42,068 nt of DNA. Source: an uncultured Gemmatimonadota bacterium (GTDB lineage Bacteria; GCA-2686955). Below the pieces are notes generated by a model. The model was not told the origin of the DNA and did not search any database. It saw nothing but the letters and a program-made list of their open reading frames with translations. The position numbers were made by a program, and so were the translations under genes. This document shows positions 3,633-42,068 of the stretch, in pieces (the first letter of the stretch is position 1; each line of letters starts with the position of its first letter). Where the stretch lies: NCBI GenBank assembly GCA_964490075.1, contig CAZBBK010000050.1:1-42068 (forward strand), in the 5' to 3' direction.

Positions 3633-3636
3633 AGGA

Positions 3637-4872: not shown

Positions 4873-4890
4873 ACCCGATTCCCGCTCATC

Positions 4891-6066
4891 ATGGCCGATT
4901 CGCCGCTCCCCCGCCCCCGTGCCCTGATCTCACTGGTCGACGACAACCCGCTGCTCCCGGCGTTGGTGGCGCGACATATACGACCCGCGCAGTGGACTCT
5001 GGTCAGCTCCGACCGCCCCAACGCCCTCGGCAGAGTCGAAGAGATGGCGGCCTGGGCGCGGCGCTTCGGCATCGACACCCGATCGGTTCAGGTCGAAGAC
5101 GGATCGGTCGAGGGCGCCCGCAGCCATCTGAGCGACGCCGTCGGCTCCGCCGACACTCTGTGGATCGACGTCTCCACTTCGGGCCCCGCCCTCGCCGCCG
5201 CCGCGCACGCCGTGGCCCTCGACCGGGGCGTGCCGCGCGTGTTCGTCGACGAGACCCGCAACCGTCTCCACCTCTTGAACGGCCAGACCGAGCAGACCGA
5301 AGTGCTCGACGTTCCGATCACCGTCGCCGATTGCCTGGAGCTGCACGGCCGCGCGATCGTCAACCAGCCCCGGCGCCTCTCCGACCTGCACGAGGACGCC
5401 TGCGCGCTCTCATACTACGTGGGCTCCCGCTACGCCGACCTCGAGCCGCTCGCCACCAGCATTCGTCGCGCTCTGGTGAGCCGCCGCCGCAGGCCGATCG
5501 TCATCCCTTCCGCCGAGCACAACCGCGCCGTCGAGCACCTGCTGGAGCACCTGGGCGAGCTGGGAGCCGTCGATTCGATCGAGCCCGACCCGCATCAGCT
5601 CCGGCTCGAGCTGCGCCTCGATCACCCCATCTACTCCCTCTTCCGTGGCCCATGGCTGGAGCACTACGTCTACATGGAGGTGGCAAACCTGGTCGAAGAC
5701 GGAGTCGCCGACGACGCATTGCTGGGCGTCGAGTTCAGCTGGGACGCGGACGATCCCGGCGCCAACACCAACGAGATCGACGTCGCGTTCACCATGGGCG
5801 ACCGCCTGGTGATCGTCGAGTGCAAGTCGGGGCGCTTCGACCGCCGCGCCGATCCCGCCGCACAGCTCCATCGGCTCGTTGCGTTGCGTCGCTACGTCGG
5901 AGCGACGACGGCGGAAGCGGTCCTGGTGGTGGCGAAGCGGGTCCATCATCGAGCCATGATTCGCCGCCGGGCGCGCGAGATGGATGTGGCGCTCTTCGAT
6001 CTGCGGGACCTGCGTGATCTGGACGAGCATCTCCGTTCGCTGCGTCCGGGCGTGCGGCTGGTCTGA
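4891..6066 (+). CDS. Can2/Card1-like (DUF1887-type) CARF + PD-(D/E)xK nuclease
   Basis: N-terminal Rossmann-like degenerate CARF ('ALISLVDDNPLLP', 'WIDVSTSG'); C-terminal 'GPWLEHYVY...NEIDV...VIVECKSG' restriction-like nuclease motif. Confidence 0.75.
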   Translation: MADSPLPRPRALISLVDDNPLLPALVARHIRPAQWTLVSSDRPNALGRVEEMAAWARRFGIDTRSVQVEDGSVEGARSHLSDAVGSADTLWIDVSTSGPALAAAAHAVALDRGVPRVFVDETRNRLHLLNGQTEQTEVLDVPITVADCLELHGRAIVNQPRRLSDLHEDACALSYYVGSRYADLEPLATSIRRALVSRRRRPIVIPSAEHNRAVEHLLEHLGELGAVDSIEPDPHQLRLELRLDHPIYSLFRGPWLEHYVYMEVANLVEDGVADDALLGVEFSWDADDPGANTNEIDVAFTMGDRLVIVECKSGRFDRRADPAAQLHRLVALRRYVGATTAEAVLVVAKRVHHRAMIRRRAREMDVALFDLRDLRDLDEHLRSLRPGVRLV

Positions 6067-6077
6067 ATGCAGGCATC

Positions 6078-6368
6078 GTGGCCAGGACGACGCTTCTGCA
6101 CATCGTCGCCTACGACGTCGCCTGCGACCGGCGCCGAACCCGCGTGATGAACGCACTGAAAGACGTGGGCGTGCGCGTCAACTACAGCGTTTACGAGTGC
6201 GTTCTGCCGGCGGGCGACGCGGCGGAGCTTCTGAGCCGGCTGCAGGGACTGATCCGGCAGAGCGAGGATCACATCCGCATGTATCGTCTGTGCGGCTCCT
6301 GCGCGGTCGAGACCAAGGTCATCGGCAGCTTCGACGATCCGGACGCCGGCATCATCAACATCTCATGA
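6078..6368 (+). CDS. cas2: CRISPR-associated endonuclease Cas2
   Basis: 96 aa; 'IVAYDV', 'RVNYSVYEC', 'DHIRMYRLCGSC'; directly upstream of RT-cas1. Confidence 0.92.
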   Translation: MARTTLLHIVAYDVACDRRRTRVMNALKDVGVRVNYSVYECVLPAGDAAELLSRLQGLIRQSEDHIRMYRLCGSCAVETKVIGSFDDPDAGIINIS

Positions 6369-6384
6369 CCGGAGAACCCGCGAC

Positions 6385-8688
6385 TTGGGCGAGCTCTACC
6401 AGGAGATCATCACCGAGAACAGTCTCTTCGAGGCCTGGCGTGTCGTCGGCCGGCGGCCGGTCGCGCACGGCCTCGACGGTGTCGATCCCCAGATGTTCCA
6501 GCGTGATCTCGACGCGGAGATCGTCGAGCTGGCGCGAGATCTGGCTTCGTACCGGTTCGCGCCGGTGCCGGCACGCCAGGTCTTCGTGCCGAAGGGCGGA
6601 AGCGAATGGCGGGAGCTCGCGCTCCCTTCGATCCGCGACAAGATCGTGCAGCAAGCGGCGCGCCGTGCGGTGGAACCGATCCTGGAGCGGACCTTTCTGG
6701 ACTGCAGCTACGCTTACCGCAAAGGGAAGAGCGCCTGGAAGGCGATCGGGCGTACGCGCCACGAGCTGAAGAACATCGGCGCCAACTGGGCGGTGAAGAG
6801 CGACGTGGACGACTTCTTCGACACGATCGATCATGCGCGCCTGTTCGAGATGCTGGCACGGGAGATCGACGACGCCGACGTGGTACGTCTGATCCGTATC
6901 TTCGTCGAGAACGGCGTGATGGGGGCGACTGGAGAGCTGCGCGACCCGGTGAGCGGCGTGCCGACCGGGTCGGTATTGGCACCGCTCCTGAGCAATCTGT
7001 ACTTGAGCGGATTCGATCGCTATCTGCGCGACACCGATGTCTGCCACGTGCGCTACGCGGACGACTGGGTGATGCTGATGAAGAGCAAGTCCAGAGCGAA
7101 GGAGGCATCCGAGGCGGTAACAACGTACTTGAAGGAGCGCCTCGGATTGAGGATCAACCGGCGGCGGCAACCCTACTACGCGACCGAACGGGGCTTCCCC
7201 TTTCTGGGGTTCTGGGTGCGTGCGCGGGAGCTTCGCATCGACCGCGCCAAGATCGGCAAGACCGAGCGAATGCTTCAGTCGCTGGCGAAGCGGTCGGCGC
7301 GATGGTCGATGAACGCGGTGGTGAGCCACCTCTGCGCCAAGGCGGAGCACTGGAAGCGCTACTACGCGAAGATCGACGGCGGCAGCGAGTTGCTGGAGCT
7401 GGAGGCCCATCTTCGACAGTTCTTGCTCGATGCGCTCCAACTCCGTATCGAGCAGGAAAGGGAAGAGGACGCCGCGACCTGGAAGAGGCGCCTGCGACGC
7501 TTTCCGTGGCCCGCGCCGGGGGACGGCGCCGAGAGGCTCGAGAAGGCCTGGAAGGAGCGAGAGGATCAGCGCGCCCGGGAGCAGCAAGAGGCGAAGAAGC
7601 AGCAAGCGACAGATCGGGCGGTACGCAGGACCCGGCGCCGTTACCGCAAGGCGGTCGCCGACAAGACAGAGCTGGTGATCTGGAAGAGGGGCGCGCGCCT
7701 GGCGCGGCGCGGCGAGCGGATCTGGATCAAGCCGTCCGCCAAGGGCAAGGCGATCGAGCGACCCGCGGCGCGGGTGCGGTCGGTGGTGGTGCGGGCCAAG
7801 GGCGTCGAGATCAGCGCCGATGCGCTCTCGCTCTGCGCCCAGAACGACGTGGCGGTGAGCTTCCTGGGCAAGCGCGGCCGGCCCTTCGCGCTGCTGCACT
7901 ATCCGGAGTCGGCGCAAGCTGAGCTGCTCCTGTCCCAGCTCGAGGCGGCGACCGGTACGCGCGGCCTGGAGATCTCTTGCCGCCTGGTGCAGGCCAAAGT
8001 ACGCAACCAGGCCAATCTGCTGCGGTACTTCGGCAAGTACCTGGAGAAGAGTGACGCAAGGACGCATGAGCGCCTGGACGAACTGGTGCTGGACGCCCGC
8101 CGTTGCGCGCTGGAGCTGAACGAGATCCGCCGCGCGGCGGCCGGCATGGAGCCCGACGCCGGTCGCGGCAAGATCTTCGCCGCAGAGGGGCGCGGCGCGG
8201 CATCGTACTGGCGGGGGGTCCGCGAGCTGGTGGAGCCCGACTACAGCTTCCCGAAGCGGACCCACAGAGGCGCGAAGGACCCCATCAACTCCGCGCTCAA
8301 CTACGGCTACGGCATTCTCTACCACCGGATCGAGAACGAGATCATGAAATCCGGCCTGCACCCGCAGATCGGGTTCCTGCACAAAGGGATCGGCAAGCGT
8401 CCGTCGCTCAGCTTCGATCTCATCGAGCTCTTTCGGGCGCCGGTGGTCGATCGCGCCGTCATCGCCATGGTGTCGCGGCGGGAGCCGATCGAGGTCGAGG
8501 TCGAAGGCCGACTGGCGGAAGAGAGCAGACGTGCGATCGCCGACAACGTGCTGGAACGTTGGCGATCCGAAACGCCGTACGGCGGCGACCATCGCGACTA
8601 CGGGGCGATCCTGAGAGATCAGCTCGACCGGATCAAGAGCGTGGTGCGGGGCGAGGGCCGCTATCGGCCTTTCGTGCAGCGGTGGTGA
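6385..8688 (+). CDS. cas1: Reverse transcriptase-Cas1 fusion
   Basis: RT motifs 'RELALPSIRDKIVQ', 'SYAYRKG', 'KSDVDDFFDTI', 'GVPTGSVLAPLLSNLYL', 'RYADD'; C-terminal Cas1 with 'EGRGAASYW', 'NSALNYGY', 'GFLH', 'SFDLIELFR'. TTG start with GGAG upstream. Confidence 0.93.
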   Translation: MGELYQEIITENSLFEAWRVVGRRPVAHGLDGVDPQMFQRDLDAEIVELARDLASYRFAPVPARQVFVPKGGSEWRELALPSIRDKIVQQAARRAVEPILERTFLDCSYAYRKGKSAWKAIGRTRHELKNIGANWAVKSDVDDFFDTIDHARLFEMLAREIDDADVVRLIRIFVENGVMGATGELRDPVSGVPTGSVLAPLLSNLYLSGFDRYLRDTDVCHVRYADDWVMLMKSKSRAKEASEAVTTYLKERLGLRINRRRQPYYATERGFPFLGFWVRARELRIDRAKIGKTERMLQSLAKRSARWSMNAVVSHLCAKAEHWKRYYAKIDGGSELLELEAHLRQFLLDALQLRIEQEREEDAATWKRRLRRFPWPAPGDGAERLEKAWKEREDQRAREQQEAKKQQATDRAVRRTRRRYRKAVADKTELVIWKRGARLARRGERIWIKPSAKGKAIERPAARVRSVVVRAKGVEISADALSLCAQNDVAVSFLGKRGRPFALLHYPESAQAELLLSQLEAATGTRGLEISCRLVQAKVRNQANLLRYFGKYLEKSDARTHERLDELVLDARRCALELNEIRRAAAGMEPDAGRGKIFAAEGRGAASYWRGVRELVEPDYSFPKRTHRGAKDPINSALNYGYGILYHRIENEIMKSGLHPQIGFLHKGIGKRPSLSFDLIELFRAPVVDRAVIAMVSRREPIEVEVEGRLAEESRRAIADNVLERWRSETPYGGDHRDYGAILRDQLDRIKSVVRGEGRYRPFVQRW

Positions 8689-8765
8689 GTCGGATTCGCT
8701 TCCTGTGAAGGGCGCGCGTCCTCGAGCCCCTGACATCGACGGAGAAAACGCAGATCGGAGGCGTC

Positions 8766-11335: not shown

Positions 11336-12502
11336 CTACTCTTCGGCGGCGTCCGCCAGCTTGCTCAACAGTCCGCGGCGGATCTCGACCCACTTCTTAC
11401 CGCCTGTGATGTTTTTCTTGATCGCCTTGTGGGCCTTTTCCTTCACGCTCGGATCGCAGTCCCGCAGTCGCGGAATCCAGTCTTCTTCGATGATCCGCGC
11501 GCGTTGCGCCTTGTTGGGCGGCTCTCCCGTGTCGGCGAGCGCGGGCGGGTTCTCGAGCCAGGCCGAGAACTCGCTCCAGGTCGGATCGGCGGCGGCTTCC
11601 TCCTCGCGCTCGCGGGCATCGGGATCGATCTCGACCTTCCAGCGGTCCGGTGCGGCGCGGCCGTAACCAGCGACGGTCTTGGCGCCCACGCCCCACTCTT
11701 CGAGCGCCTTTTGCAGCAGCTCGAGCGCCAACGCCGTCCACGCCTTCGGTCCGCTCAGCGCGACCAGGAACTCCGCGCCCGGGCGAACCGTCAAGAACGA
11801 CACAGGCACCGGGTCTTCGTAATCGTTCGGCCATGGCCGCGCGGTGCCGCTCGCGCCGTAGTAGGCTCCCTGGTGCGGCGTCAGGACGTCTCTGGCGAAA
11901 GTACCCTTGCGGCGCACGGATGAGGAAACCAGCAGCGCATCGTGGAAGACGACGAATCCTCGAGAGGCCGCGGAACGCTCCCGCTGCTCCTCCTCGGTCC
12001 AGCTCGTGTCGGGGCGCCCGAAGAGCGCGCCGTGGATCTCGCCCGAGGACTTGACGATCCTTGCCCCTCGCCACTCGACACCGCGGTACTTCTTGCGCTC
12101 GTCGTTCTCGGCGCCGGAACCGGGGTCCGGACCGTAGACGGCATCGACGTAGTGGTTGAGCAACCCCTTGAGCGCCGATCCGGGGATGAACGGAACTCCC
12201 CAAGTATGGTGAAGCGTCAGGCCTACCTCGGTCGCCGAGGGAGTTCCGGAGCCCACCAGCAAGCGCGACGCGAATCTCGCGCGAGCAGCTCTCGATCCGT
12301 CCGTCCCCAGACTCCCGACCCACCTCAGATAGGCGTGGTGATAGTCCGGCGCGATCTCTATCTTCTCCAACTGGTCGAACCAGGAGTCCTTGACGCGATT
12401 CGGGATCTTACCCGAGTCGTCCGCCGGCGCCCACACGTCGTAAGCCAGACCCGGGTGCTGCGGTACGCTTGCCGCGCCGAGGCGCTTGATTGCGTCACGC
12501 AT
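11336..12502 (-). CDS. cmr6: Type III-B RAMP Cmr6
   Basis: 'SRLLVGSG..SATEVGLTLHHTWGVPFIPGSALKG', 'DVLTPH', 'NDYEDPVPVSFL', 'GVGAKTVAGYG'; start placed at ATG 12502. Confidence 0.92.
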   Translation of the reverse strand: MRDAIKRLGAASVPQHPGLAYDVWAPADDSGKIPNRVKDSWFDQLEKIEIAPDYHHAYLRWVGSLGTDGSRAARARFASRLLVGSGTPSATEVGLTLHHTWGVPFIPGSALKGLLNHYVDAVYGPDPGSGAENDERKKYRGVEWRGARIVKSSGEIHGALFGRPDTSWTEEEQRERSAASRGFVVFHDALLVSSSVRRKGTFARDVLTPHQGAYYGASGTARPWPNDYEDPVPVSFLTVRPGAEFLVALSGPKAWTALALELLQKALEEWGVGAKTVAGYGRAAPDRWKVEIDPDAREREEEAAADPTWSEFSAWLENPPALADTGEPPNKAQRARIIEEDWIPRLRDCDPSVKEKAHKAIKKNITGGKKWVEIRRGLLSKLADAAEE

Positions 12503-12515
12503 GATTGCTTTCTCC

Positions 12516-12875
12516 TCAGTCCTCGAAGGTTGCGTCGACCGCACGCTTGTACCACAGGCAAAGGGCGAGCATCTCTCTCGTGGCGAGCATGTACTCACCG
12601 GCATCCAGCCCACGAATCGCGCCCGGCAGGTGTGCTCCGGAACAGCCCTCGGGAACACCCGGGATTCCGGATCCAGCCAGGTGCTCCAAGAGCGAGACGA
12701 TCGCCGGCTCTTTCTTGCCCCGTTCGAGAAAGGCCAGCGCGGCGGATAGCCCGCTGCGAACGATCTCCGAGCCGAGGCTCTTGACCGTTGTGCGGTACTT
12801 CTCGCGCTCTCGAGGATCGCCTACGGTGGCGACATTTTGATAAGCGATCAGCGCTCGTTCCTGGTCGCGTCTCAT
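12516..12875 (-). CDS. cmr5: Type III-B small subunit Cmr5 (Cas11)
   Basis: ~119-aa helical protein with 'YRTTVKSLGSEIVRSGLSAALAFL' and 'YMLATREMLALCLWYKR'; lies between cmr4 and cmr6. Confidence 0.88.
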   Translation of the reverse strand: MRRDQERALIAYQNVATVGDPREREKYRTTVKSLGSEIVRSGLSAALAFLERGKKEPAIVSLLEHLAGSGIPGVPEGCSGAHLPGAIRGLDAGEYMLATREMLALCLWYKRAVDATFED

Positions 12876-13795
12876 GCCCCCGCCTCCTCGCCGACCGGGG
12901 CGGCCTGGATCCCGAGCGGGATCATCCGGCAACGTCCGCGGCCCACCGTCGCCTTTCCGCCGAACTGCAACATTCGTTCATCGTCCAGAACGAAGGCGAT
13001 CACCTCATCCGGCGTCATCCGCTGGTCCCGCCATCGGCTGCGATCCGCCACCAGGCAGCCGACCAGCAGGCTCTCGGGAGGAAGGCTCTCCTCGGTCCAG
13101 AGCGCCTTGTCGGCCACGGTGCGCGTCTCGGCGTCGATCCGCACCCGGGTGTCGACCTGGGTCGCGGTCTCCCACAGGAAGGTCATCGTCTCGTCGTCGA
13201 CGATCACGAAGCGACGCTCGAACATCTCCGGGTGCTCCGCGCCGCCCACCAGCGGGGCGAGCGCCGCGCCCCAGGCCGCGCAGCACTGGTCGGCCGTCAC
13301 CGGCAGGTCGAGGTCCTCGAGGTAGACCTTCGCGCCCTCACCGCCGCCGACGACGTTGACGCACTTGTTTTCACCACCAATCGATGCGACCAGAGCCGTC
13401 GTTGCGCCGGCGGTGGGGATCTGGTGGTCCAGCACGCTCCGCAGCTCCGGGTCACGCACCGCCAGCGACAGAAGCAGTGGCGAGGAGACCCAGGCGAAGG
13501 TGCCGGCGAAGCTCCGCACGGGAAGCGCGAGCAAGCGGGCATCGGTCACGATCAGCGCCCCGGCGTGGGCGCTCGCCTCGAGTGTGTTGGGGCCGAAGAC
13601 CGCCCGGATTCGTTTCGGGTCGGCGCCGATGGAGCGCAATGCGTCGCGCAGCACACCCTTGACCGACGAGCCGGGAAGCAGCGGAATCCCGGTCGATCTC
13701 ATCCGCGCGATCGGCAGGTCGATCACGCCGACCGATTGGCCGGTACCGGCGTGCAAGGGCGACAGTGCATGAATCAGAAAAGGTCTCGCTAGCAT
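12872..13795 (-). CDS. cmr4: Type III-B backbone RAMP Cmr4 (Cas7)
   Basis: 'HALSPLHAGTGQSVGVIDLPIAR', 'PGSSVKGVLR', 'ALWTEESLP', 'QFGGKATVGRG'; start at ATG 13795. Confidence 0.95.
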   Translation of the reverse strand: MLARPFLIHALSPLHAGTGQSVGVIDLPIARMRSTGIPLLPGSSVKGVLRDALRSIGADPKRIRAVFGPNTLEASAHAGALIVTDARLLALPVRSFAGTFAWVSSPLLLSLAVRDPELRSVLDHQIPTAGATTALVASIGGENKCVNVVGGGEGAKVYLEDLDLPVTADQCCAAWGAALAPLVGGAEHPEMFERRFVIVDDETMTFLWETATQVDTRVRIDAETRTVADKALWTEESLPPESLLVGCLVADRSRWRDQRMTPDEVIAFVLDDERMLQFGGKATVGRGRCRMIPLGIQAAPVGEEAGA

Positions 13796-15027
13796 GTGGT
13801 CACATCTCCCTTGGAAGCGGCGGCCGACGTACCCTCGGGGTGCCACACCCCGCCGGCCACACAGCCCATTCCCTTCGTGGTGTGCCCTCCGATCTGGCCC
13901 AGCCACAACGATTGAAGCTCGGCGGCCGTGATCGGTTCGGCGGATTTCTTCTGGAAAAAGTAGACCGACCCAGGCGGAACGAGGCGCAGCGTCGGCTTCG
14001 GTTCGCCCCTCGCCACGTCCCAGCCGGAGACGTGCAACGCGCGACCGGTGATCGCCGCACGCAGGACCAGCGTGCCATCGATTCCCGAGAGCTGTCCCTC
14101 GAAGGTCTCTTCCTCCGTGGCGTCGAAGCCGTCCGGCAGCCATCCGCGCTCGAAGCATGCCGGAGTGACCAGTACGAGCCGAAGACCGGGGCAGGGTCTA
14201 TCCTGGAAGTCCGGCGCGGCAAGAAGACCGGCCGGGCAGGCGCCGGCATGGGTCAGGCCTCCGTCCCCCCCCAGGAAGAGGGGCTGCGACGCAATTCCCG
14301 CGGTATCCTCGGGGAAGCTCGCGCGCAGTGCCATGGCCCACTCCCACAAAGGGGCGCCTGAGGCACAGCGGCTCCAGGGCTCCACGACGTCGAGCGAGAA
14401 GAGCGCGCCTTCCCGTGCCGTGCCGGTCTCGGCGTCGAGCGATACATGGACACGCGAGCGATTGCCCTGGGTCAACGCGACGTAGTCGGCCGGGCGGTGG
14501 GCAGCGACCTCCTCTCCGCGCAGCCAGGCCTCGAAATCGGGATCGGGCCACCAGCGTGGTGCCGGAACCGGCTTCTCGGCACATCGTCGCCGCGGTCGCC
14601 ACAGTCTTTCTCTGGCTCGCTGCTCCTCATCGGATCCGAGATCGCGCCCCATGCTCGGGACGGTCGCCGGTCGAGGACACAAGCGCTCGATCGACTCCGC
14701 GCCACGGGCGTAGAGCGCGTCGAGGGGCACCGGCCACATTCGATCGGCGCGCGACCACGCGGATCCGTCCGCCCGCCGCCGCAGCGGCAGCATCGCGTGG
14801 AGCGCCACCTCGGCCGTGCGTTCGGGCCAGGAGCGCCGATCGAGCGAGAGACTCGGGTCGCTGGCCTCGAGCGATCGTCCCCAGCCGGTGCGCAGCGCTC
14901 CGAGGACCGTCGATGGAAAGGGCCAGTCCAGCGTGCCGGCGCGCCGCGTCTCGCTGGAGTACCAACCTCTGCCATCCTTGAAGCTGTGGCCGTCCTGACC
15001 GCGAAGAAGAAGATCGGTGGGCGCCAT
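13789..15027 (-). CDS. cmr3: Type III-B Cmr3 (Cas5)
   Basis: 'FKDGRG...WPFPSTVLGALRT', 'FLGGDG', 'LVLVTPA', 'VSGWD..RGEPKP..RLVPPGSVYFF', C-terminal 'KGMG'; start at ATG 15027. Confidence 0.9.
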   Translation of the reverse strand: MAPTDLLLRGQDGHSFKDGRGWYSSETRRAGTLDWPFPSTVLGALRTGWGRSLEASDPSLSLDRRSWPERTAEVALHAMLPLRRRADGSAWSRADRMWPVPLDALYARGAESIERLCPRPATVPSMGRDLGSDEEQRARERLWRPRRRCAEKPVPAPRWWPDPDFEAWLRGEEVAAHRPADYVALTQGNRSRVHVSLDAETGTAREGALFSLDVVEPWSRCASGAPLWEWAMALRASFPEDTAGIASQPLFLGGDGGLTHAGACPAGLLAAPDFQDRPCPGLRLVLVTPACFERGWLPDGFDATEEETFEGQLSGIDGTLVLRAAITGRALHVSGWDVARGEPKPTLRLVPPGSVYFFQKKSAEPITAAELQSLWLGQIGGHTTKGMGCVAGGVWHPEGTSAAASKGDVTTC

Positions 15028-16892
15028 CACTTGGCCTCCTCGGGATCCGGAATCGTCCGCCGTGAATCGTGGAAGAGACGGGTGATCAACATTCGGCTGA
15101 CCCACTCGTCGACCCGTGCGTGCAGCGCGGCGTAGGATCCCGGTCCCGCTGCCTCGATTCCGCAATCGGACAACCCGGGCGCCGGCTGGCGGGTGTCGCC
15201 ATCCTGTCCCGTGCCGCTCTCCGAACGGGCAAGAGAGCGAGCCACCTCGCCGCGCAGCACCTTTGCCCAGGCGGCCTGCTCCTTGTCCGCGCCGAGCTGT
15301 TCCGCCGCCGGCATTCGATCGAGGATCGACCGCACTTCGTACACCTTTCGGTGGGACACCGCCGGATTCCGCCAGGTAGCGATGTCGGCCGCGAGGCGAG
15401 CGCTCGGCTCGTCCGGATCCGACCAGCGGCGGCGCCAGCTCAGCTCTCCGCCCGAGCGCTTCTTCAGCACGATTGCCAGGGCGTTGCGATCCTTTCCAGC
15501 GCGCCACAGCTCGGCGCCCTTGGCCAGCGACTCCGCCTGGCGCCCCATCTGCAACAGATCGCTCATGCTCTCGCGGGAGTGCCCGACCGCGAGACCGACC
15601 GAGAGCGTCGGTCTGGCCACGGCTTCGTCCGCCAGCGCCTCCTCCATGCAGTCCCCGAACGCCTGGCGCAGCGCCCCTGCGCAGGAGATCGCGTCGCCCA
15701 GGCAGACGAAAGCCAGCACGTCGTCGCCGCCGGAGTAGACCAGCAGCCCGCGATGTCGTTGTTCGACGATCTCCCTCGCCTTCCCCGCGAACTCCGCCAG
15801 CTTGATCGAGAAGCGCCGGTGATCATCGGGGTCGCCGAGTGTGTCGATCGCCGCGCCCATCTGATCGCCGTCGGCAACCAGACATGCGACGTAGGGGCTG
15901 GGTGCGCCGCCCATGGCCTTCAGCAGAGGGCGGACGTGCCGCCCGCCCCATGCGGCAGGATCCTCGTCGGCCTCGACCTCCTCGAGCAGGCTCGGCCAGC
16001 GCTCCTCGAAGAGCACCTGGGCGTCGAAGGGGAAGCCGCCGAGCCAGCTCAAATCGGGGCGGTGGATCGGCCCGATCCCCCGGGCGCGGCATTCGCTCCG
16101 CAGCCTATCGAGAGGCCCGGCCGCCTGGCGTGCGGCGGCGGCCAGCCAGTCCGCCACCGCGACGTTGGTGACGGGCACGAACTGCGACGGCTCTCCACCC
16201 GCGCGCTTGGTCAGACCGATCGCATCGAGCTGCTCGTTGTCGGTCAGGCGAAACCTGCGCACCAGGTGCGCGGGGCGCCGGCCCGGTGGTTGCAGCAGTG
16301 TGTTGCGGGCGCCGTCCAGGCTCGACTTCGGAACGCCATCTCGCTGACGTCGCCAGGGGGAGAAGTCGCGCAACAGCTTTCTCTGGGCGACCGCCGCTTC
16401 GACTTCGAGCCGCGCCGCCTTGTAGCCTCGCTCGCCGACGGCCGTCCAGGCCGCCGCGAACTCGATCAGCGTGTCGATCTGCTCGTCCCAGGCGCGATCG
16501 GTGCCGTCGGCGATGAGCTCCGCGACACGCTCCCTCGCTTGCGTGGCCAACGCGCGCCACCGCTCACCCGCCGCCTCACGGCAGCGCTCCGCCAGGCGTG
16601 CCGGATCGCGACCCGCGGGAACCTGCGCGAGGATCTTGTTGGCGACGTTCAGCGGCGGTCTCTCCTTGCCCGCGACCTGGCGCAGCGGACTGTCGCATGG
16701 ATCGAGCTCGACATCGCCGGCGCCGATCGCCGGAAAGACCAGGGTGGCGCCCTCCTCGATCAGGCGGCCAGCGGCGGCTCGCGAGATCTCGCTCAATGCG
16801 TGGCTTCCGAACCACAGATCGCGCGTGCGGCGCGCCTGCGCGATGTACTCCTGGACCGGTCCCAGGACGACCAGCAGCAGCTGATCCGACAT
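15027..16892 (-). CDS. cas10: Type III-B Cas10/Cmr2; cyclase motifs intact, HD domain absent
   Basis: Begins 'LGPVQEYIAQARRTRDLWFGSHALS'; 'ADGDQMG' and 'YSGGDDVLAF' palm motifs; no N-terminal HD domain; start at ATG 16892. Confidence 0.95.
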   Translation of the reverse strand: MSDQLLLVVLGPVQEYIAQARRTRDLWFGSHALSEISRAAAGRLIEEGATLVFPAIGAGDVELDPCDSPLRQVAGKERPPLNVANKILAQVPAGRDPARLAERCREAAGERWRALATQARERVAELIADGTDRAWDEQIDTLIEFAAAWTAVGERGYKAARLEVEAAVAQRKLLRDFSPWRRQRDGVPKSSLDGARNTLLQPPGRRPAHLVRRFRLTDNEQLDAIGLTKRAGGEPSQFVPVTNVAVADWLAAAARQAAGPLDRLRSECRARGIGPIHRPDLSWLGGFPFDAQVLFEERWPSLLEEVEADEDPAAWGGRHVRPLLKAMGGAPSPYVACLVADGDQMGAAIDTLGDPDDHRRFSIKLAEFAGKAREIVEQRHRGLLVYSGGDDVLAFVCLGDAISCAGALRQAFGDCMEEALADEAVARPTLSVGLAVGHSRESMSDLLQMGRQAESLAKGAELWRAGKDRNALAIVLKKRSGGELSWRRRWSDPDEPSARLAADIATWRNPAVSHRKVYEVRSILDRMPAAEQLGADKEQAAWAKVLRGEVARSLARSESGTGQDGDTRQPAPGLSDCGIEAAGPGSYAALHARVDEWVSRMLITRLFHDSRRTIPDPEEAK

Positions 16893-18271
16893 CACCGGAT
16901 CCTCCTCGCCTTGCGGCCGCTGTCCAACCATCCGAAGAACGCCTCTCGCATCCGCAGCCCCCGCGCGGTCGATCGATCGACTCCGTCGAGGGGTTGGTAG
17001 TGGGCGGCCTCTCCCCGCGCCAGGAGCTGATCGAAATCGGCTCCGGCCGTCCTCAAGCTGGGTGGCGCCTTCGCGACCTCCGGCGCCACGGTGCCTTGCG
17101 GGTAGGCCCTCTCCAGCCACAGAGCGCAAGCGACGAATCTCCCGCCGGCGAGCGGCAGCGCCTTGACGATGAGCGGGCTCGCGAGCCGGCTTCTCTTCTC
17201 TTGGTGCGGGTCATACCAGAAGAGCTCGAACTCGCCCGGGTCGCCGGGACTGGTCGGAAACGACCCCTGGATCGGCAGACCGAAGGCGGCCCGCGGCCAG
17301 ACCGGGGTGGCGGTGTGTCGCGGTGTCTTGCCCCTGCTTCCGGTCAAGTGTCGCAGCTTGTCCGGCTCGGGCCAGTTGGAGCGGCCGGGGCGTTTGGGCG
17401 CTCGGCCGTACTGGCGTGCGAAGTTGCTGGGGCTCGGCGACGCTGTCCCTGTGCTCGGAGCGCGCCCCTGCCGGAAGTCGCGCAGCCAGCTCACCGCCTG
17501 GCCCCACTTCGTTTCGGCCGAGTCGCCGGGGCTGGCTCCGGCATAGAGCAGCGCGCCGCGCAGGCAGGGCGTCGGAAGTGCGGAGGGCGTGCTCGACGCA
17601 GCAAAGAGCCCCGCGCCCAGGAGCCTCTCCAGCTCGGCGAGTGTCGCGCTCTCGGGCAGCCACTTGTCGCGATCGTCCCCGATCACCGTCAGGCCGCCGA
17701 GCCCTCGCCGCGTCCGCGAGCCGTAGCCTCCGAAGAGTATCCAGGCACGGAGCGCGCGCTCGACCTCTTCCACGCGGTCCTCGTCCACCCGCAACGTCAG
17801 CTCGAGCTCGGTGCCAGCGGGGCGCCGCGGCGCTGGAGGAGTATCGTGCCTCGTTTGCGACTGCGCGGGCCACAAGGCGTACGAGCCACGCGTCGTGCTC
17901 AGGTCGATATCGGTCTCGTCGAGCTCCTGAAGAGTCTTGCGGTCGACCCGGACGTCGATCTCGACCTGCGACCGCACGGTCTTCTCGCCCGCGCGGCCGC
18001 CCCACAGCGCCGCCTCGCGCTCGGCCAGCTCGCTCGCGTCGCGAACTTCGTGGGCGACCAGGGCCCGCCACCAGAAGCGCAGATGCCCTCGGACGGCCGG
18101 CACTCGGATGACGTCCACCTCGTCGATCACCCGCGTCGCCGGGGCGCCGCCCAGAATCGGCGTCACGACCTTCAGCTTCACCTCGATCGGTTTGATCGTC
18201 GATCCGCCTCGACGGTTGCGCAACCGGGCCGCCGGCAGTTGCGCCGGTGGCTCGGGAAGAGGTGGGGACAT
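16892..18271 (-). CDS. cmr1: Type III-B RAMP Cmr1
   Basis: 'VVTPILGG', 'RGHLRFWWRA', 'FGGYGSRTRRGLG', 'PRAAFGLPI', 'RLASPL'. Confidence 0.93.
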   Translation of the reverse strand: MSPPLPEPPAQLPAARLRNRRGGSTIKPIEVKLKVVTPILGGAPATRVIDEVDVIRVPAVRGHLRFWWRALVAHEVRDASELAEREAALWGGRAGEKTVRSQVEIDVRVDRKTLQELDETDIDLSTTRGSYALWPAQSQTRHDTPPAPRRPAGTELELTLRVDEDRVEEVERALRAWILFGGYGSRTRRGLGGLTVIGDDRDKWLPESATLAELERLLGAGLFAASSTPSALPTPCLRGALLYAGASPGDSAETKWGQAVSWLRDFRQGRAPSTGTASPSPSNFARQYGRAPKRPGRSNWPEPDKLRHLTGSRGKTPRHTATPVWPRAAFGLPIQGSFPTSPGDPGEFELFWYDPHQEKRSRLASPLIVKALPLAGGRFVACALWLERAYPQGTVAPEVAKAPPSLRTAGADFDQLLARGEAAHYQPLDGVDRSTARGLRMREAFFGWLDSGRKARRIR

Positions 18272-18534: not shown

Positions 18535-19800
18535 ATGAGCAATACACACTTCGATCCGGCAGATCTCGACCTCTACTGCCAGGATCCGGGTTCCGCGAGC
18601 GCTTTTCTCGGCACCGCGCTGGCGCCCTATCTGCTCACCGAAGCGGCGCGCCGCGAGGCCGGCGTGGCGCCGCCCCTTCTCTCGGACCGCTCCGGGAGCT
18701 GCACGGCGCTTCTGGTGTGGCGCACTGCATCGCCGAAGGTCTTGCGGCCCAGCTTCATTCTGCCCCTGACCTGGCATCGAGACCGAAAGGACTCAGCCCG
18801 GCTTCCGCGGGGATTGGGGCCGGTCGCCGACGGCGTGCGGCGCGCGCTCGACCTTCCGGACTGGGGACTCGATCTGGCGCCGGAGCTGGACGGCGTAGAT
18901 CTGAGCGGTCTGGCGGTGGACGCCGACTCGACCTGGGCGTCTCTGGCGGCGGGTCTGATCGTCGCGAGCGAGGGTGGCGTGCCGCGATCCAACGTCTTCG
19001 CGACCGGCAGCTGGACGGGCCGGGGCATCGAGGCGATCGACCAGCTCGAAGCGAAGATCGGAGCGGTGCGGGACTGGTCCGAGGCGCACGAGCGGGAGGC
19101 GAAGATCTTCGTGCCGGCTGCCAATGCGATCGCGGCGCTCGAGCTGAAGGGGGGGAGCGTCGAGGTCGCGTACTATCCTCCGGCGGATTCCGAGCCGAAG
19201 AGCTCTCTGAAGCAGCACCTGGCCGATCTCGAGGTTCCTCCGAGTCGCGAAACCGAGCACCTCGACCGCAGGATCGCGTTCTTCAATCGAGATCGTCGCC
19301 CTTGGAAGGTCCATCTCGACTACTACATCGATCATCTCGCGAAAGACATCGCGGTCGGCCTGCGCGAGGATGTGTCGGCAGATCCCCCGGTCGCTCGATT
19401 GGCGCTCGCGGTGGGGTTGAGAGCGGACCTGGCTACGCTCTTGATCGAGACGCTGCGCCCGCGCGAGGCTCTGCTGCTTGTCACAAAGGACAGCCACAAG
19501 TACGTCGAGAGGATCAAAGAGGCGACCGGCCGGGCAGACCTGCCGGTCGTGCTCTTCGACATGCAGCACTACGACGCGGTCGTGTGCGAGCTGCGCGATT
19601 GGTTGAGCGCCGCGCGATCCTCCGGCACCGACGCCGTCGACATCACCGGCGGTACCGGGGCGATGACCGCGTGCCTGCTGGCCGCCGCGTGGCAGACTGG
19701 ATCCCGCGTCCTCTATCTGACGCACAACTGGGAGCAGGGGAGGAACCAGGCCGGCGAAGAGATGCTAGTGCCGCTGCGGCTGGAGGCGCGCAGCCGATGA
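18535..19800 (+). CDS. Lon-type Ser-Lys protease domain fused to a C-terminal CARF domain
   Basis: Lon_C-like 'VDADSTWASLAAGL...VFATGSW..RGIEAIDQLEAK...KIFVPAAN' (Ser132 and Lys174, 42 residues apart); C-terminal CARF 'LALAVG...AVDITGGTGAMT...RVLYL'; start at ATG 18535. Confidence 0.78.
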   Translation: MSNTHFDPADLDLYCQDPGSASAFLGTALAPYLLTEAARREAGVAPPLLSDRSGSCTALLVWRTASPKVLRPSFILPLTWHRDRKDSARLPRGLGPVADGVRRALDLPDWGLDLAPELDGVDLSGLAVDADSTWASLAAGLIVASEGGVPRSNVFATGSWTGRGIEAIDQLEAKIGAVRDWSEAHEREAKIFVPAANAIAALELKGGSVEVAYYPPADSEPKSSLKQHLADLEVPPSRETEHLDRRIAFFNRDRRPWKVHLDYYIDHLAKDIAVGLREDVSADPPVARLALAVGLRADLATLLIETLRPREALLLVTKDSHKYVERIKEATGRADLPVVLFDMQHYDAVVCELRDWLSAARSSGTDAVDITGGTGAMTACLLAAAWQTGSRVLYLTHNWEQGRNQAGEEMLVPLRLEARSR

Positions 19801-20624
19801 CCCGCGACCGCAGCGAGCTGCCGCCCGAGTTCCGGGACGAGATCTTCCGCTACGCCGAGTGCTTGCTGGGCCGGTGGCCGGCGGTTCGCGGACGGACCGA
19901 GGCGGGAGACCTGGTGAGCGTTGGGTGGATGAAGCTCGACGCCGCGCGCCAGTCGGGCGCCACGATCGAAAACCCCGTCGCTTACTGCAAGAGGATCGTC
20001 TTCCGGCATTGCGTCGATCTGCATCGCCAGGCCCGGAGACAGAACACCCATTCCATGGAAGAAATCGAGAAGCTCGGTGACAGAGGGGCCGTGATCGATC
20101 GGCCGGCCGAGGTCGATTCGGCCGCGCGCGCGGTCGCGGCCTGGGGGGAGCGGCTGCGCGGTGCGCTCGATCGCGCCGACTGGCCACCGCCAGGCGTCGT
20201 CCACTATCGAGCGATTCTGCTCCTGGCGTTGCGCGTGGCGCTTCTCGAAGGTGTCGCGAAGGGCGGCGGCGAGATCGAGCCCGGCGTGCCCGTCGTCGAG
20301 CGGATGCTGCCGTGGCGCAGCGAGGAGCAGGGCTTTGCTCTGCGCGCCGAAAGCCCGGTCGAGCTGTCACAGATCTGGTCGGCCATCGTCGAGCATCGGA
20401 AAGAGCGAGGAAGCCCTCTCCGGGTGAACGACATATGCGAGATCGTCAACACGCTCGACACCGGTGCGCCCGCGTTGAACACGAGCCTCTACCGCCAGTG
20501 GATCCTGAGATCCAAGAAGCTGGGCAAAGAGCTGATCGATGCGGAGGAATGGAGCAGAGCTTTCGCTGGTCTGCTGCCGGACGTGCGCGGCCGCGCGCGC
20601 TCGCCGCAGGGGGTGCCATCATGA
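19797..20624 (+). CDS. ECF sigma-factor-like protein (region 2 recognisable, atypical C-terminus)
   Basis: 'EAGDLVSVGWMKL...IENPVAYCKRIVFRHCVDLHRQARR' fits the sigma70/ECF region 2 pattern; ATGA overlap with the Lon-CARF stop. Confidence 0.65.
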   Translation: MTRDRSELPPEFRDEIFRYAECLLGRWPAVRGRTEAGDLVSVGWMKLDAARQSGATIENPVAYCKRIVFRHCVDLHRQARRQNTHSMEEIEKLGDRGAVIDRPAEVDSAARAVAAWGERLRGALDRADWPPPGVVHYRAILLLALRVALLEGVAKGGGEIEPGVPVVERMLPWRSEEQGFALRAESPVELSQIWSAIVEHRKERGSPLRVNDICEIVNTLDTGAPALNTSLYRQWILRSKKLGKELIDAEEWSRAFAGLLPDVRGRARSPQGVPS

Positions 20625-21412
20625 GTCTGAAGCTGTCCGCCTTCCCGCATCCGCGAAAGAGTGCTCGCGTGCGGGTGTTCGGGAGCGTCCCCAGAGCCCT
20701 CGACCATCTGCGAGATCATCTGCTCACGGCTCCCGAGGCGGAGGCCTGGGGATTGATGGTTCCCGACTACCGCGATGTTCTCGATCCGGAGGATTGGCGG
20801 GGGCGATCGCGACTCGTACGGGAGATGATGGATCAGGATGGACAACCTGCCGGTGACCTCTACCGGATCTACGCACAAGCCATCGCGCAAGCCTGTCACG
20901 GGGGCAGGAACCTGGGATGGCATGTCGAGACCGATGGGGTGGAAGCGTACTTCTACACCACGGCGGTGCTGGTCCTGTTGCGTTTCGATTCCGGCGGCGA
21001 CTCCGTCGTCCTGACATCGTTCATCCCAGGGCAGGGTTCGGCCGATAAGGTCCGAAAGAGCAGAGACGAAGACGATTCCGGCGGCTCCATCGTTCGCGAG
21101 TCGACACGACGGATGCGCCGGGGCCGGCGCGAGCTCCGTGAAGACCGGGAGCGGTCGATGCGCGAGATCGAATGGAGTGAATCGGAGCGCCGCTACTTCC
21201 GGGTTTTTCGTCCCACCGTGCAGTTCATTCGGCGATCGCACTTCGATGAATTCGCTTTCGATCCCGGCCGAGGCAGGGCCAGGACCAGGCGGCATGAGTA
21301 CGCTCTGCTGAAGAAAAGGCTCCCCAGTAGCTCCAGACTGTCGTACGAGTACTGGAGGGAGCTGACCGACAACCCGTTTCGGGTGCAGGAGCAGGACCTT
21401 GAGCAGTTCTGA
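20621..21412 (+). CDS. Hypothetical protein (possibly Csx31-like) in the protease/sigma operon
   Basis: 263 aa; ATGA overlap with the sigma-like gene; no recognisable catalytic motif. The Csx31 idea rests on context only. Confidence 0.6.
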   Translation: MSLKLSAFPHPRKSARVRVFGSVPRALDHLRDHLLTAPEAEAWGLMVPDYRDVLDPEDWRGRSRLVREMMDQDGQPAGDLYRIYAQAIAQACHGGRNLGWHVETDGVEAYFYTTAVLVLLRFDSGGDSVVLTSFIPGQGSADKVRKSRDEDDSGGSIVRESTRRMRRGRRELREDRERSMREIEWSESERRYFRVFRPTVQFIRRSHFDEFAFDPGRGRARTRRHEYALLKKRLPSSSRLSYEYWRELTDNPFRVQEQDLEQF

Positions 21413-22643
21413 GATCGATGGGCTCTTCATTCGCGAGACGCCGGAGCCGCCCCCAGACTACGCGCCGCGCGTGGACGACCTGATCGAGATCTGGGTCGAT
21501 CGCGCCAGCGCGGCGGTCGAGACGTGGAGGGCCGGACGGGACCGGGTCGGGAGTGAGCCGCCCTGGGAGTTCCGGGAGCTCTGCGAGGCCGCCTATGACG
21601 CGTTGGCGAGCTGGAGTGGACTGATCAGGATTCGGCCCGATCTCAGGCCGCTTTGTGACGACACTTTCGCGGAGCTGCGTGCACTGATCCGGAAAGATAG
21701 GGAAGCCCTGGTCCGCGCGGCGGAGCGCCTGCCGGATCCCGCCGGGTGGATGGAGGAGATGCGGGAGTGGGAGCAGGAGGCCGAGTCGCCGGGGATCGAT
21801 CACGTGTACGCATCACGCCGAGCCCGCGAGCTCTACTGCGACCTCGACGATGCGGAGCTGGTGGCGTGGGCGCTGGACAGGCTTCTCCCGGGGTCGGGTC
21901 GCCGGCTAGCGGAGGAGCTCGAGCCTTGCTTGCGGCGCGCTACCGACGAGGCATGGCGCTTCTATCCTGCGTCGACCTACTTGCGGCGCGTCGCCGAGTC
22001 GATGGATCCGGGGCTCGCCGACCGCGACCCCGATCTGGCTCTCACACAGGTCAAGCTCCTGGCGACGCTCGACGCCTTCGACCGCGCCCTCGCGGAGGAA
22101 CCCGCGAACCTCGCCCTCTCTGCGGAAGAGCTGAAGCTGCTCGGCTCGCACGCGCTCTCCCCCTCAGCGGCGGCAACTCCCTGGGAAGAGCGCCTCCGAC
22201 ATTTCATCGACGCGCTCTCCGAGGAGTGGAAGCGAATCGTGTCGACTCCGCCGCCATGGCCAGTCCACGCCCCGATTCACTCGACCGGGACGGCCGCGGG
22301 ACCGGCGGCAGGCGGCGATCGCATCGATTGGCGCGGCGCTCGCGAAAGCTGGCGCGCATTCGCCAGACTGCCCGCCGCCGCGGACGCGGCCGATTCGGCG
22401 AGGATCGAGCTCTATCTGAGCGGCGTGGAGGACGACGACCGTGTGTTGCTGGCGGGGATCGAGCGGGCGCTGATGAGCGCCGGTGCTCTGCATCGCGTCA
22501 CATTCGAGCTGGGCGAGCTGCGGCGCGGAGCTCCCCCCGAGCTCCCGGACGGGCTGCTGCTGCTGCGCGCGGACGGCCGCCTCGATCTCGGAATCCCCAG
22601 CGCCGCGAACCAGCTCGAGGACACCGAGCCGCCACCGGCGTGA
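21399..22643 (+). CDS. Hypothetical protein; candidate anti-sigma / protease substrate (possibly Csx30-like)
   Basis: TTG start after AGGAG, overlapping the previous gene; acidic helical N-terminus, Pro/Ala/Gly linker ('STPPPWPVHAPIHSTGTAAGPAAGG') and beta-pattern C-terminus. Confidence 0.6.
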   Translation: MSSSEIDGLFIRETPEPPPDYAPRVDDLIEIWVDRASAAVETWRAGRDRVGSEPPWEFRELCEAAYDALASWSGLIRIRPDLRPLCDDTFAELRALIRKDREALVRAAERLPDPAGWMEEMREWEQEAESPGIDHVYASRRARELYCDLDDAELVAWALDRLLPGSGRRLAEELEPCLRRATDEAWRFYPASTYLRRVAESMDPGLADRDPDLALTQVKLLATLDAFDRALAEEPANLALSAEELKLLGSHALSPSAAATPWEERLRHFIDALSEEWKRIVSTPPPWPVHAPIHSTGTAAGPAAGGDRIDWRGARESWRAFARLPAAADAADSARIELYLSGVEDDDRVLLAGIERALMSAGALHRVTFELGELRRGAPPELPDGLLLLRADGRLDLGIPSAANQLEDTEPPPA

Positions 22644-41606: not shown

Positions 41607-41677
41607 GGCGGAGGAGGCTAGCACGCCCCTCTAAGGGTCCGCGCAGTCAGGTTTCAGAGCCTCCACGCCCCGCCCTG

Positions 41678-42010: not shown

Positions 42011-42068
42011 TTTGGTCTTAGGCGCTCGCCAGAATTGACCCACCTGTGCTCGTGAGAAGCGACCCACT

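Follow-up and report, generated by a model that had tools for sequence, protein, structure and literature searches.

A gene in a 42,068-nucleotide contig of an uncultured Gemmatimonadota bacterium (CAZBBK010000050.1; the window below is this whole stretch) raises the question of what a Lon-type protease fused to a CARF sensor would cut when it stands beside a CRISPR operon, and which signal would switch it on. The Lon-CARF gene occupies positions 18535..19800 of the forward strand (stop codon included) and encodes 421 amino acids, as judged from its open reading frame and motifs, a PADLOC match, and an AlphaFold2 (AF2) model. The longest reading of the frame starts at 18310; the ATG at 18535 lies within about 10 residues of the start in a database copy (P0001) and in most of the 19 closest relatives, and the third-position GC of the frame is 0.78. 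[quoted passage not shown] Every motif it named was recovered at its position: DADS at 129–132 (with Ser132), FATG at 155, Lys174, IFVP at 191, N197 and DITGGT at 369–374, with a spacing of 42 residues from Ser132 to Lys174.

The AF2 model was confident (pLDDT 95.7, pTM 0.92, with a pLDDT of at least 88 in each 10-residue block up to residue 410). Structure prediction had been proposed as a check of the two folds, and Foldseek found both of them, Lon and CARF, in the model with a probability of 1.00. The claimed absence of an AAA+ module also held: at 421 residues, the chain is filled by one Lon-like and one CARF-like domain, Pfam reports no ATPase domain in it, and no ATPase family matched it in Pfam, NCBIfam, or PADLOC.

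The PADLOC model PDLC01981, named “CARF_m2--CARF_LON”, matched residues 28–411 over model positions 31–403 of 408 (E = 1.5e-55), and the match was reproduced in a search of the source assembly. By this profile, the protein belongs to the catalogued CARF-Lon family, with which it shares the domain order (Lon first, CARF last) and a type III CRISPR setting, and its architecture was already known. The model reportedly goes back to the census of CARF proteins by Makarova et al. 2020, since which CARF-Lon is said to have been a prediction. The fusion also figures as a bioinformatic prediction in a 2022 review, which treats its function as speculative. [quoted passage not shown] The literature searched yielded no biochemistry of CARF-Lon proteins.

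With the single sequence as a query, Pfam returned neither a Lon_C nor a CARF match, phmmer against the PDB gave nothing at E ≤ 10, and a word-indexed homologue search found a single relative besides the protein itself; these near-empty results indicate that profiles are needed for this family. Approximately 420 related clusters were found at E ≤ 1e-3 among 1.84 billion representatives. Among 109 full-length relatives aligned at 23–41% identity, only W80, S132, and K174 form invariant columns (109/109 each), which puts the motif match far beyond chance. A Pfam scan of the 109 members detected Lon_C in 4 and CARF_Card1 in 19. Metagenome searches with Lon-domain patterns retrieved no relative, and a search with a CARF pattern retrieved 21 loci, with family members only in L021 and L022. 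Relatives are adjoined by cas or CARF genes in L002, L003, L004, and L022; L005 and L055 gave no match in the one ORF scanned per locus.

The predicted Lon-type (S16) proteolytic domain extends over positions 18667..19254 (+; approximately residues 45–240), as delimited by the family profile and Foldseek. Searched against the PDB, the family profile matched the A. fulgidus Lon proteolytic domain (1z0w, E = 1.9e-10) along with many other Lon entries, and Foldseek matches of the domain comprised BsLonBA (8dvh, TMt 0.66), 1z0e (TMt 0.65), MtaLonC, and E. coli Lon (3wu6). The alignment to A. fulgidus Lon (AfLon), with numbering fixed by the D508A mutant entry, places DADS on GDS, FATGSW on MTGSL, and FVPxxN on IIPKDN. 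The predicted nucleophile Ser132 (codon 18928..18930, +) aligns with the Ser following D508, and Lys174 (codon 19054..19056, +), the predicted general base, falls on the Lon Lys located 43 residues past the catalytic Ser. Judged from these alignments, the Lon (S16) proteolytic domain of the protein has an intact Ser/Lys pair, which does not vary within the family. It shares with the LonB/LonC-type proteases (A. fulgidus Lon, B. subtilis LonBA, and Meiothermus MtaLonC) a common fold, with target-normalised TM-scores of 0.63–0.67 for isolated domains, and the dyad positions (spacing of 42 versus 43 in AfLon). Unlike them, it has about 45 additional N-terminal helical residues, lacks both an AAA+ and an AAA-like module, and gives no hint of a hexamer-forming context; the identity is just 12–18%. 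ATP-dependent Lon proteases (LonA/LonB) differ from the Lon-CARF chain by their AAA+ unfoldase module.

The CARF domain (19387..19779, +; approximately residues 285–415) was recognized by the profile, by Foldseek, and by TIGR02710 (E = 7e-9, under the cut-off of that model). The family profile matched the CARF domain of Thermus thermophilus Csm6 (TtCsm6; 5fsh, E = 4.3e-18) and Cam1 (8t64, E = 4.5e-11), and the best Foldseek matches were again TtCsm6 structures (8jbb/8jh1, E = 3e-9). The TtCsm6 CARF, which is Crn1-like and both binds and cleaves cA4, is the best solved relative at 22–25% identity and has motif II D-x-T-x-G-T-K in common with the family consensus, although the effector is a protease here and not a HEPN domain. 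Motif II of the window copy, D-I-T-G-G-T-G (residues 369–375; 19639..19659, +), aligns with T133/G135/K137 of TtCsm6. T371 and G373 are conserved in 106/109 and 107/109 relatives; position 375 is Lys in 86 and Arg in 9 of the 109, and it is Gly in the window copy in place of the family Lys, a detail absent from the initial annotation. Motif I likewise reads G-L-R-A-D versus the family S-x-(S/N)-P-E: position 294 is Gly (Ser in 91/109) and position 296 is Arg (Ser in 45 and Asn in 31). The G294/G375 pair occurs in only 2 of the 109 sequences. The family ligand motifs (S-x-S/N in motif I and T-x-G-x-K in motif II) are therefore not matched by this copy, though T371 and G373 are present; the mismatch matters for ligand binding and leaves the homology unaffected. 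In the TtCsm6 study, the K137A substitution abolished both cA4 binding and activation; since G375 replaces the corresponding Lys, cOA control of the window copy is less certain than the initial annotation had assumed. Two side observations give a lead to cA4 for the family: the closest solved CARF is that of cA4-binding TtCsm6, and one family member has a C-terminal Csx3 domain (E = 1.4e-18).

The gene adjoins a type III-B cmr operon with a complete cmr1–6 set, and its Cas10 retains GGDD. Cas10/Cmr2 lies on the reverse strand (longest ORF 15027..17129; TIGR02577, E = 6.9e-56; PADLOC Cas10, E = 9.8e-90; GGDD at ORF residue 467); its family match sets in only near residue 83, which puts the actual start codon probably close to 16892. 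Cmr1 (16892..18271, −; RAMPs, E = 1.8e-17; TIGR01894, E = 7.5e-11) is divergent from Lon-CARF, and Cmr6, Cmr4, and Cmr3 follow within 11336..15507 (−; ORFs 11336–12658, 12872–14158, and 13789–15507; PADLOC E-values of 1.8e-38, 7.6e-64, and 1.5e-55). Other genes of the CRISPR island lie on the forward strand at 863..8688, with PADLOC matches for Cas6 (1.6e-34), a CorA-like protein (CorA, 5.4e-13), a Csx1/Csm6 protein (CARF-HEPN; CARF1--CARF_HEPN, 4.1e-87), a Can2-like CARF-PD-DExK protein (CARF4--CARF_PDDEXK, 2.2e-40), and RT-Cas1 (Cas1_IIIb, 1e-130). No CRISPR array was found within the window; arrays are present at three contig ends of the source genome.

Downstream of Lon-CARF, the four genes Lon-CARF, sigma-like, g3, and g4 overlap in the window. 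The start of the sigma-2-like partner gene (19797..20624, +; 275 aa) overlaps the Lon-CARF stop (ATGA), that of g3 (20621..21412, +; 263 aa) shares 4 nt with the end of the sigma-like gene, and g4 (21399..22643, +; 414 aa), when read from a TTG start codon, has 14 nt in common with g3. Of the 10 informative loci, 7 have a sigma-like/g3/g4 module beside Lon-CARF, at a GC content of 47–71%; g3 is syntenic in these seven, and g4 in six loci. In a 401-genome sample, g3 occurred in 4 genomes and was beside Lon-CARF in 3 of them; genome G262 carries sigma-like, g3, and g4 genes, with no Lon-CARF in the 17 kb fetched around the module. The remaining 3 of the 10 informative loci (L002, L053, and L054) are without the module, and their neighbors include unknown 526- and 617-aa proteins, a Fic protein, and an AAA_15 ATPase. 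A 228-aa protein upstream in L002 has a weak Sigma70_r4_2 match (E = 0.0012); as a sigma-like orthologue, it was rejected (hhalign probability of 3%).

The sigma-2-like protein matched Sigma70_r2 (E = 0.0049) and TIGR02937 sigma70-ECF (E = 1.3e-4) below the curated cut-offs, as did 3 of 7 orthologues for Sigma70_r2 (best E = 1.1e-5, also below the curated cut-off). Aligned by hhalign to the ECF-type sigma factor P0174, it gave a probability of 95% over residues 10–83, which covers region 2 only; no region 4 was detected by Pfam or in this alignment. One 710-aa protein, P0009, joins a Lon-CARF (residues 3–412) to a sigma-like protein (434–697; hhalign 99%, E = 5.4e-18); this fusion is represented by one cluster only, and, given the 4-nt overlap of the two genes, a frameshift error could have produced it. 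The product of g3 has 21 database relatives, none named and none with a Pfam domain, and conserved motifs HLRDHLLTAPE..W and TAFLPGQG. Its AF2 model (pLDDT 85.7) contains a low-confidence basic linker at approximately residues 140–170. Against the PDB, g3 had no relative by sequence and no Foldseek match at E ≤ 0.001, and an Atlas search returned unnamed clusters only (at most 0.90). An identity as a CalpT-like or MazF-like protein was discarded for want of PDB sequence and fold matches; the only weak Foldseek rows, to RelE/ParE/HigB-type toxins (probability of 0.15–0.33), were treated as noise. A complex prediction of Lon-CARF with g3 scored 0.00 (mark 0.32) and was counted neither for nor against. 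For g4, no match in Pfam, NCBIfam, or PADLOC reached E ≤ 0.001 (Pfam listed two rows, with E = 0.021 and 0.54, both under the cut-offs), the PDB gave no match, and Atlas no usable one. The conserved downstream operon, which the initial annotation had missed, favors a specific substrate and an output at the level of transcription over a free-standing protease. The operon goes unmentioned in the literature searched.

Only two characterized cOA-gated proteases, CalpL and SAVED-CHAT, were found in the literature searched, and in the accessible parts of these reports both have SAVED sensors. The earlier statement that CalpL uses SAVED and not CARF is borne out by this literature. As described there, CalpL cuts CalpT upon cA4 binding, and CalpS is released. 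Like CalpL, Lon-CARF is an ancillary Lon-family protease of a type III system, without an ATPase, fused to a predicted cyclic-nucleotide sensor, and it has a putative sigma-like protein and another candidate partner encoded nearby. Unlike CalpL, it has one CARF domain (about 130 residues) instead of SAVED, with dimeric CARF proteins as its best matches, and CalpL is absent from the best 60 PDB sequence matches and from the Foldseek matches listed for Lon-CARF. CalpL is reported as a self-associating monomer, whereas a single CARF domain would need a dimer. The CalpL/CalpT/CalpS set also differs from this operon, which adds g4 as a third conserved partner; g3 has no similarity to any PDB chain and hence none to CalpT, if CalpT is deposited. 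SAVED-CHAT, part of a type III-B, cA3-activated cascade, is likewise a cOA-gated protease, which performs limited proteolysis; its protease is the caspase-like CHAT and its sensor SAVED, and no sequence or fold relation to Lon-CARF was seen.

Together, the operon in 7 of 10 loci and the P0009 fusion suggest a CalpL-like relay from protease to transcription. We give a probability of roughly 60% to the reading that this CARF-Lon member is an ATP-independent Ser132/Lys174 protease with a CARF sensor, a type III-B ancillary effector that cuts an operon partner and thereby releases the sigma-like protein. In such a relay, Cmr bound to target RNA would activate the Cas10 cyclase, and a cyclic oligoadenylate, most likely cA4, would bind to CARF, probably spanning the two chains of a homodimer. 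Binding would release or align the protease, which may then make a limited cut in a partner from the same overlapping operon. The first-choice candidate substrate is g3, which has a conserved boundary at PGQG and a flexible linker of basic character. By analogy with CalpL/CalpT/CalpS, the cut would free the sigma-2-like protein and redirect transcription. Of this scheme, the analysis establishes the two folds, the invariant dyad, the CRISPR setting, and the conserved operon, while ligand, dimer, activation step, and substrate are inferred.

Both the cut and its trigger could be read otherwise. Lon-CARF might be a cOA-activated protease of broad specificity that degrades many host proteins and brings about dormancy or death without a dedicated partner. 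The three informative loci that have no sigma-like/g3/g4 module would fit such a suicide role, and non-specific effectors, Csx1/Csm6 and the Can2-like nuclease, are already in the locus. Without an unfoldase, however, broad degradation of folded proteins is unlikely, and the seven other loci share a conserved operon with translational coupling; there is also a natural fusion to the sigma-like protein. The 2022 review does speculate about an “aggressive promiscuous protease” or the cutting of essential host proteins, but CalpL, the sole characterized CRISPR Lon protease in the accessible literature, is partner-specific, and we consider such general degradation improbable. Another reading would make the CARF domain the active part: a Crn1-like unit that resets the system by breaking down or sequestering cA4, with the Lon-like domain being structural. 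The TtCsm6 study describes this CARF type as sharing its motifs with Crn1 ring nucleases, these motifs are retained in the family consensus, and a Csx3 domain has been added in the one member. Against this stands the invariance of S132 and K174 across all 109 relatives while the catalytic/binding Lys of the CARF domain varies, and the window copy, with no motif-II Lys, is the least likely family member to be a ring nuclease; we regard this role as very improbable.

A further possibility concerns the window copy rather than the family. With G375 and G294/R296, it might be blind to cA4 in the manner bound by Csm6/Crn1-type domains, or retuned, and be governed by another nucleotide or by a partner, or be decaying. 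Lys or Arg at position 375 in 95 of the 109 relatives, the scarcity of the Gly pair, and the effect of K137A in TtCsm6 speak for it, and the cOA response could be left to the two further CARF effectors in the locus. Apart from these positions, the CARF domain is nevertheless intact and confidently modelled with T371 and G373 retained, the frame is open with gene-like third-position GC, and the operon is intact; R296 might even stand in for the lost charge. As 14 of the 109 relatives retain the dyad with neither Lys nor Arg at 375, a tolerated variant is suggested rather than decay. We hold loss or retuning of cA4 binding to be rather unlikely, and keep to the cOA-gated relay as the preferred reading.

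More tentatively, Lon-CARF with the sigma-like/g3/g4 module could be a second, independently assembled relay from CRISPR to transcription, in which cleavage of g3 or g4, each from a new family, by the CARF-gated protease would free a private sigma-like factor. Other sensors might drive the same module, as the Lon-less G262 may indicate, and the G375 copy may answer a signal other than cA4. The initial annotation had also envisaged an RNA-triggered protease tool, for which a relative with a canonical S294/K375 CARF, such as the L003 orthologue, would be a safer start than the window copy.

Overall, this locus and its relatives offer a set of four genes that overlap in turn, a Ser/Lys pair that never varies, and three proteins as candidate substrates. 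Should the relay exist, g3 and g4, two families without known relatives, would gain a role, and proteolysis would have brought type III CRISPR to transcriptional control at least twice.

Lon-CARF lies in an open frame on the plus strand that extends from 18310 to 19800, and the ATG at 18535 gives a protein of 421 aa, the same length as its database copy P0001. Most of its 19 closest relatives start within ~10 residues of this position, and the frame has a gene-like third-position GC of 0.78. The initial annotation had read the product as a Lon protease domain fused to a CARF domain, and every motif it named was present in the translated ORF at the residue assigned to it: DADS at 129–132, FATG at 155, K174, IFVP at 191 and DITGGT at 369. 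Routine annotation could not have confirmed this call, since a Pfam scan of the single sequence matched neither Lon_C nor CARF and phmmer against the PDB returned zero matches. The PADLOC model CARF_m2--CARF_LON aligned residues 28–411 on model positions 31–403 of 408 (E 1.5e-55).

When 1.84 billion representatives were searched exhaustively with HMMER, 420 clusters proved related at E ≤ 1e-3, of which 273 passed E ≤ 1e-10 and 49 passed E ≤ 1e-30. From the best 150 we hand-picked 109 full-length members, excluding fragments and a few much longer proteins; these share 23–41% identity with the query, and the only invariant columns of the alignment are W80, S132 and K174 (109/109 each). The phylum of the window was represented by five genomes in the searched set, of which only the window's own carries the family; outside this phylum it was rare (6/401, 2/401 and 2/14 genomes searched). 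The six matches in one 401-genome sample of a single phylum were obtained with the PADLOC CARF-Lon model, and in one of them (G390) the CARF part matched alone, with a stop within.

Profile searches with the 109-member alignment resolved the two halves of the protein. Positions 129–232 matched the Archaeoglobus fulgidus Lon (AfLon) proteolytic domain (1z0w, E 1.9e-10) and dozens more Lon entries, and the C-terminal third matched the CARF domain of Thermus thermophilus Csm6 (TtCsm6; 5fsh, E 4.3e-18) and Cam1 (E 4.5e-11). The N-terminal halves of the protein at five loci were used for a second profile, which could be aligned to AfLon residue by residue; in this alignment the family motifs vDaDSawasLA, vfatGsW, GieaKiea and FvPreN fall on VEGDSASISIA, VAMTGSL, GVTQKIEA and IIPKDN, respectively. 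The entry 1z0c, described as the D508A mutant of AfLon, reads EGASAS in the same alignment, so that the serine following D508 is the residue aligned to S132. The aligned Ser and Lys are 43 residues apart in AfLon versus 42 in Lon-CARF; the AfLon pair, S509 and K552, is its established catalytic dyad. An AlphaFold2 model based on the 109-sequence alignment reached a mean pLDDT of 95.7 and a pTM of 0.92, and Foldseek against the PDB recovered both folds from it: a first group of TtCsm6 chains (E 3e-9 to 4e-8), with cA4 and A2>p complexes among them, and a second group of isolated Lon proteolytic domains (TMt 0.66 for BsLonBA, 0.65 for AfLon, 0.67 for M. jannaschii Lon and 0.61–0.66 for E. coli Lon), which also included MtaLonC.

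The gene is divergent from a cmr operon comprising Cmr1 (16892–18271), Cas10/Cmr2 (15027–17129, minus strand), which keeps its GGDD motif, and Cmr3, Cmr4 and Cmr6. In the Cas10 ORF, 'HD' occurs at residue 687 only and is absent from the N-terminal part, so this type III-B system may rely on signalling rather than on an HD nuclease. According to PADLOC, genes in the initial 11 kb of the window encode Cas6, an RT-Cas1 fusion, a CorA-like protein (1845–3632), a Csx1/Csm6 CARF-HEPN protein (3637–4872, E 4.1e-87) and a Can2-like CARF-PD-DExK protein (4891–6066, E 2.2e-40), together with a HerA/mad8-like ATPase (8766–11333). At least four of the products encoded between 863 and 11333 are additional candidate effectors of signalling or accessories, which makes this multi-effector type III-B locus unusually crowded. 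The window holds no CRISPR array; three arrays lie elsewhere in the assembly at contig ends (the end of C18 and the starts of C38 and C54), with five copies at ~61-nt, four at ~86-nt and seven at ~73-nt spacing, and none of the three repeat words tested occurs in the contig of the window. An ~18-nt word (AAAAAGTTGGAGAATCGA-like) occurs three times in positions 1–200, upstream of cas6, twice in direct and once in inverted orientation. Beyond ~25.5 kb the genes are housekeeping ones; the 51-nt tandem repeats at 35559–35719 (3 copies) and 41633–42040 (~6.6 copies), 61–81% identical between copies and adjoining histidine-kinase and porin genes, are not CRISPR-like.

Downstream, ATGA at 19797–19800 combines the Lon-CARF stop with the start of a sigma-like gene (275 aa), whose own stop is overlapped by the start of g3 (263 aa) at 20621; g3 and the 414-aa g4 overlap by 14 nt. 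Searches of genome contigs, metagenomes and whole genomes, the last with the PADLOC model, yielded 11 loci with full-length Lon-CARF, the window included and L021 and L022 taken as one; L056 runs up to a contig edge and was set aside as uninformative. By tblastn, the sigma-like gene and g3 adjoin Lon-CARF in 7 of the 10 informative loci (the window, L003, L004, L005, L021/22, L052 and L055), at a GC content ranging from 47 to 71%. Six of the seven also carry g4, the contig of L055 stopping inside g3, and in L021/22 all three partners lie upstream instead of downstream. No tblastn match to the partner genes was found beside Lon-CARF in L002, L053 or L054. In L002 it neighbours two proteins of unknown type, and Sigma70_r4_2 was matched weakly there. 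The relatives in L053 and L054 are divergent (26–27% identity); the former adjoins a protein with a Fic domain (E 1.5e-10), the latter an AAA_15/AbiEii-like ATPase (E 1.8e-19), which suggests that partners vary between subfamilies. A g3 profile matched four genomes in the 401-genome sample of one phylum, with g3 next to Lon-CARF in three. In the fourth, G262 (contig C7, ~6847–9975, minus strand), the sigma-like gene, g3 and g4 are followed by an overlapping gene for a 1000-aa protein with no Pfam match, and no Lon-CARF was found across the 17 kb examined; the output module may be driven there by another sensor. In the 710-aa relative P0009, residues 3–412 align with Lon-CARF and residues 434–697 with the sigma-like family (hhalign 99%, E 5.4e-18); this may be a fusion that occurs naturally or a frameshift artefact, given the 4-nt overlap of the two genes in the window.

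The sigma-like protein matched Pfam Sigma70_r2 (E 0.0049) and NCBIfam sigma70-ECF (E 1.3e-4) below the curated thresholds; three of seven orthologues matched Sigma70_r2, likewise below threshold (best 1.1e-5). Its profile gave weak PDB matches to SigJ, SigW and SigE (E 0.064–0.38), and hhalign placed residues 10–83 on a 159-aa ECF-type sigma factor at 95%. Every sigma match falls below curated thresholds and is confined to region 2; the family also conserves the C-terminal 140 residues, though these are unassigned. For g3, the 21 database relatives are all unnamed and strongly conserve the motifs HLRDHLLTAPE..W, LYDLY and TAFLPGQG. Its model (pLDDT 85.7) has an alpha/beta N-domain and a helical C-domain, separated by a basic, low-confidence segment spanning residues ~140–170, and no solved structure was related to it by sequence or by fold. 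Searches of the Atlas and the PDB found no relative of g4.

We propose, with a probability of about 0.6, that Lon-CARF is a cOA-gated, partner-specific protease feeding a sigma-like output: cOA binding is predicted to gate the protease, which would then act on a specific partner and so lead to the sigma-like output. The proposed mode of action resembles that of CalpL/CalpT/CalpS, the CRISPR Lon-SAVED protease with its anti-sigma and ECF-like sigma factors; Lon-CARF nevertheless lies outside the CalpL family because its sensor is not SAVED and no CalpT homology was found. A promiscuous suicide protease, set beside an operon in which the same partners recur, appears improbable.

The ligand site bears on whether the window copy itself responds to cOA. 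In the profile alignment, family motif I, S-x-(S/N)-P-E, falls on TtCsm6 G58-T59-S60-P-E, and motif II, D-x-T-x-G-T-K, on D-L-T133-S-G135-T-K137. One study of TtCsm6 describes loss of cA4 binding in K137A, and loss of cleavage and activation in T59A/S60A (PMC10897365). Of the 109 relatives, 86 carry K at position 375 and 9 carry R there, 91 carry S at position 294, and S294 and K375 occur together in 74. The DITGGT of the initial annotation is real in Lon-CARF but ends one residue before the informative position 375, which is G in the window copy; its motif I reads G294-L-R-A-D, and one other sequence among the 109 has the same glycine pair. Judged from these residues, the family probably senses cOA; the window copy may do so, with less certainty. 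That this copy is ligand-blind or retuned is a minority possibility, one that overlaps the gated-protease reading at the family level. The protease dyad is kept in all 109 relatives, whatever residue stands at 294 or 375. One member, P0002-like and encoded in L004 (5938–7653), combines Lon, CARF and Csx3 in a triple fusion (Cas_csx3, E 1.4e-18). Csx3 is a cA4 ring nuclease, and as a built-in off-switch it would point to cA4 as the family ligand; the cA4 lead for Lon-CARF comes from this fusion together with the TtCsm6-like CARF. A ring-nuclease role for Lon-CARF itself is very improbable.

The CARF-Lon fusion is already catalogued as a PADLOC model, and excerpts of a 2022 review list it as predicted, with a speculative function. 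According to the literature excerpts, 'Lon-CARF' is also a former name of the present CalpL, which is Lon-SAVED. Among the excerpts returned by a full-text literature search, we found neither experimental work on a true CARF-Lon nor a description of the sigma-like/g3/g4 operon, although Makarova et al. 2020 may already describe the neighbourhood. Overall, the gene is a further member of a known, predicted family, and the sigma-like/g3/g4 operon is the part likeliest to be new.
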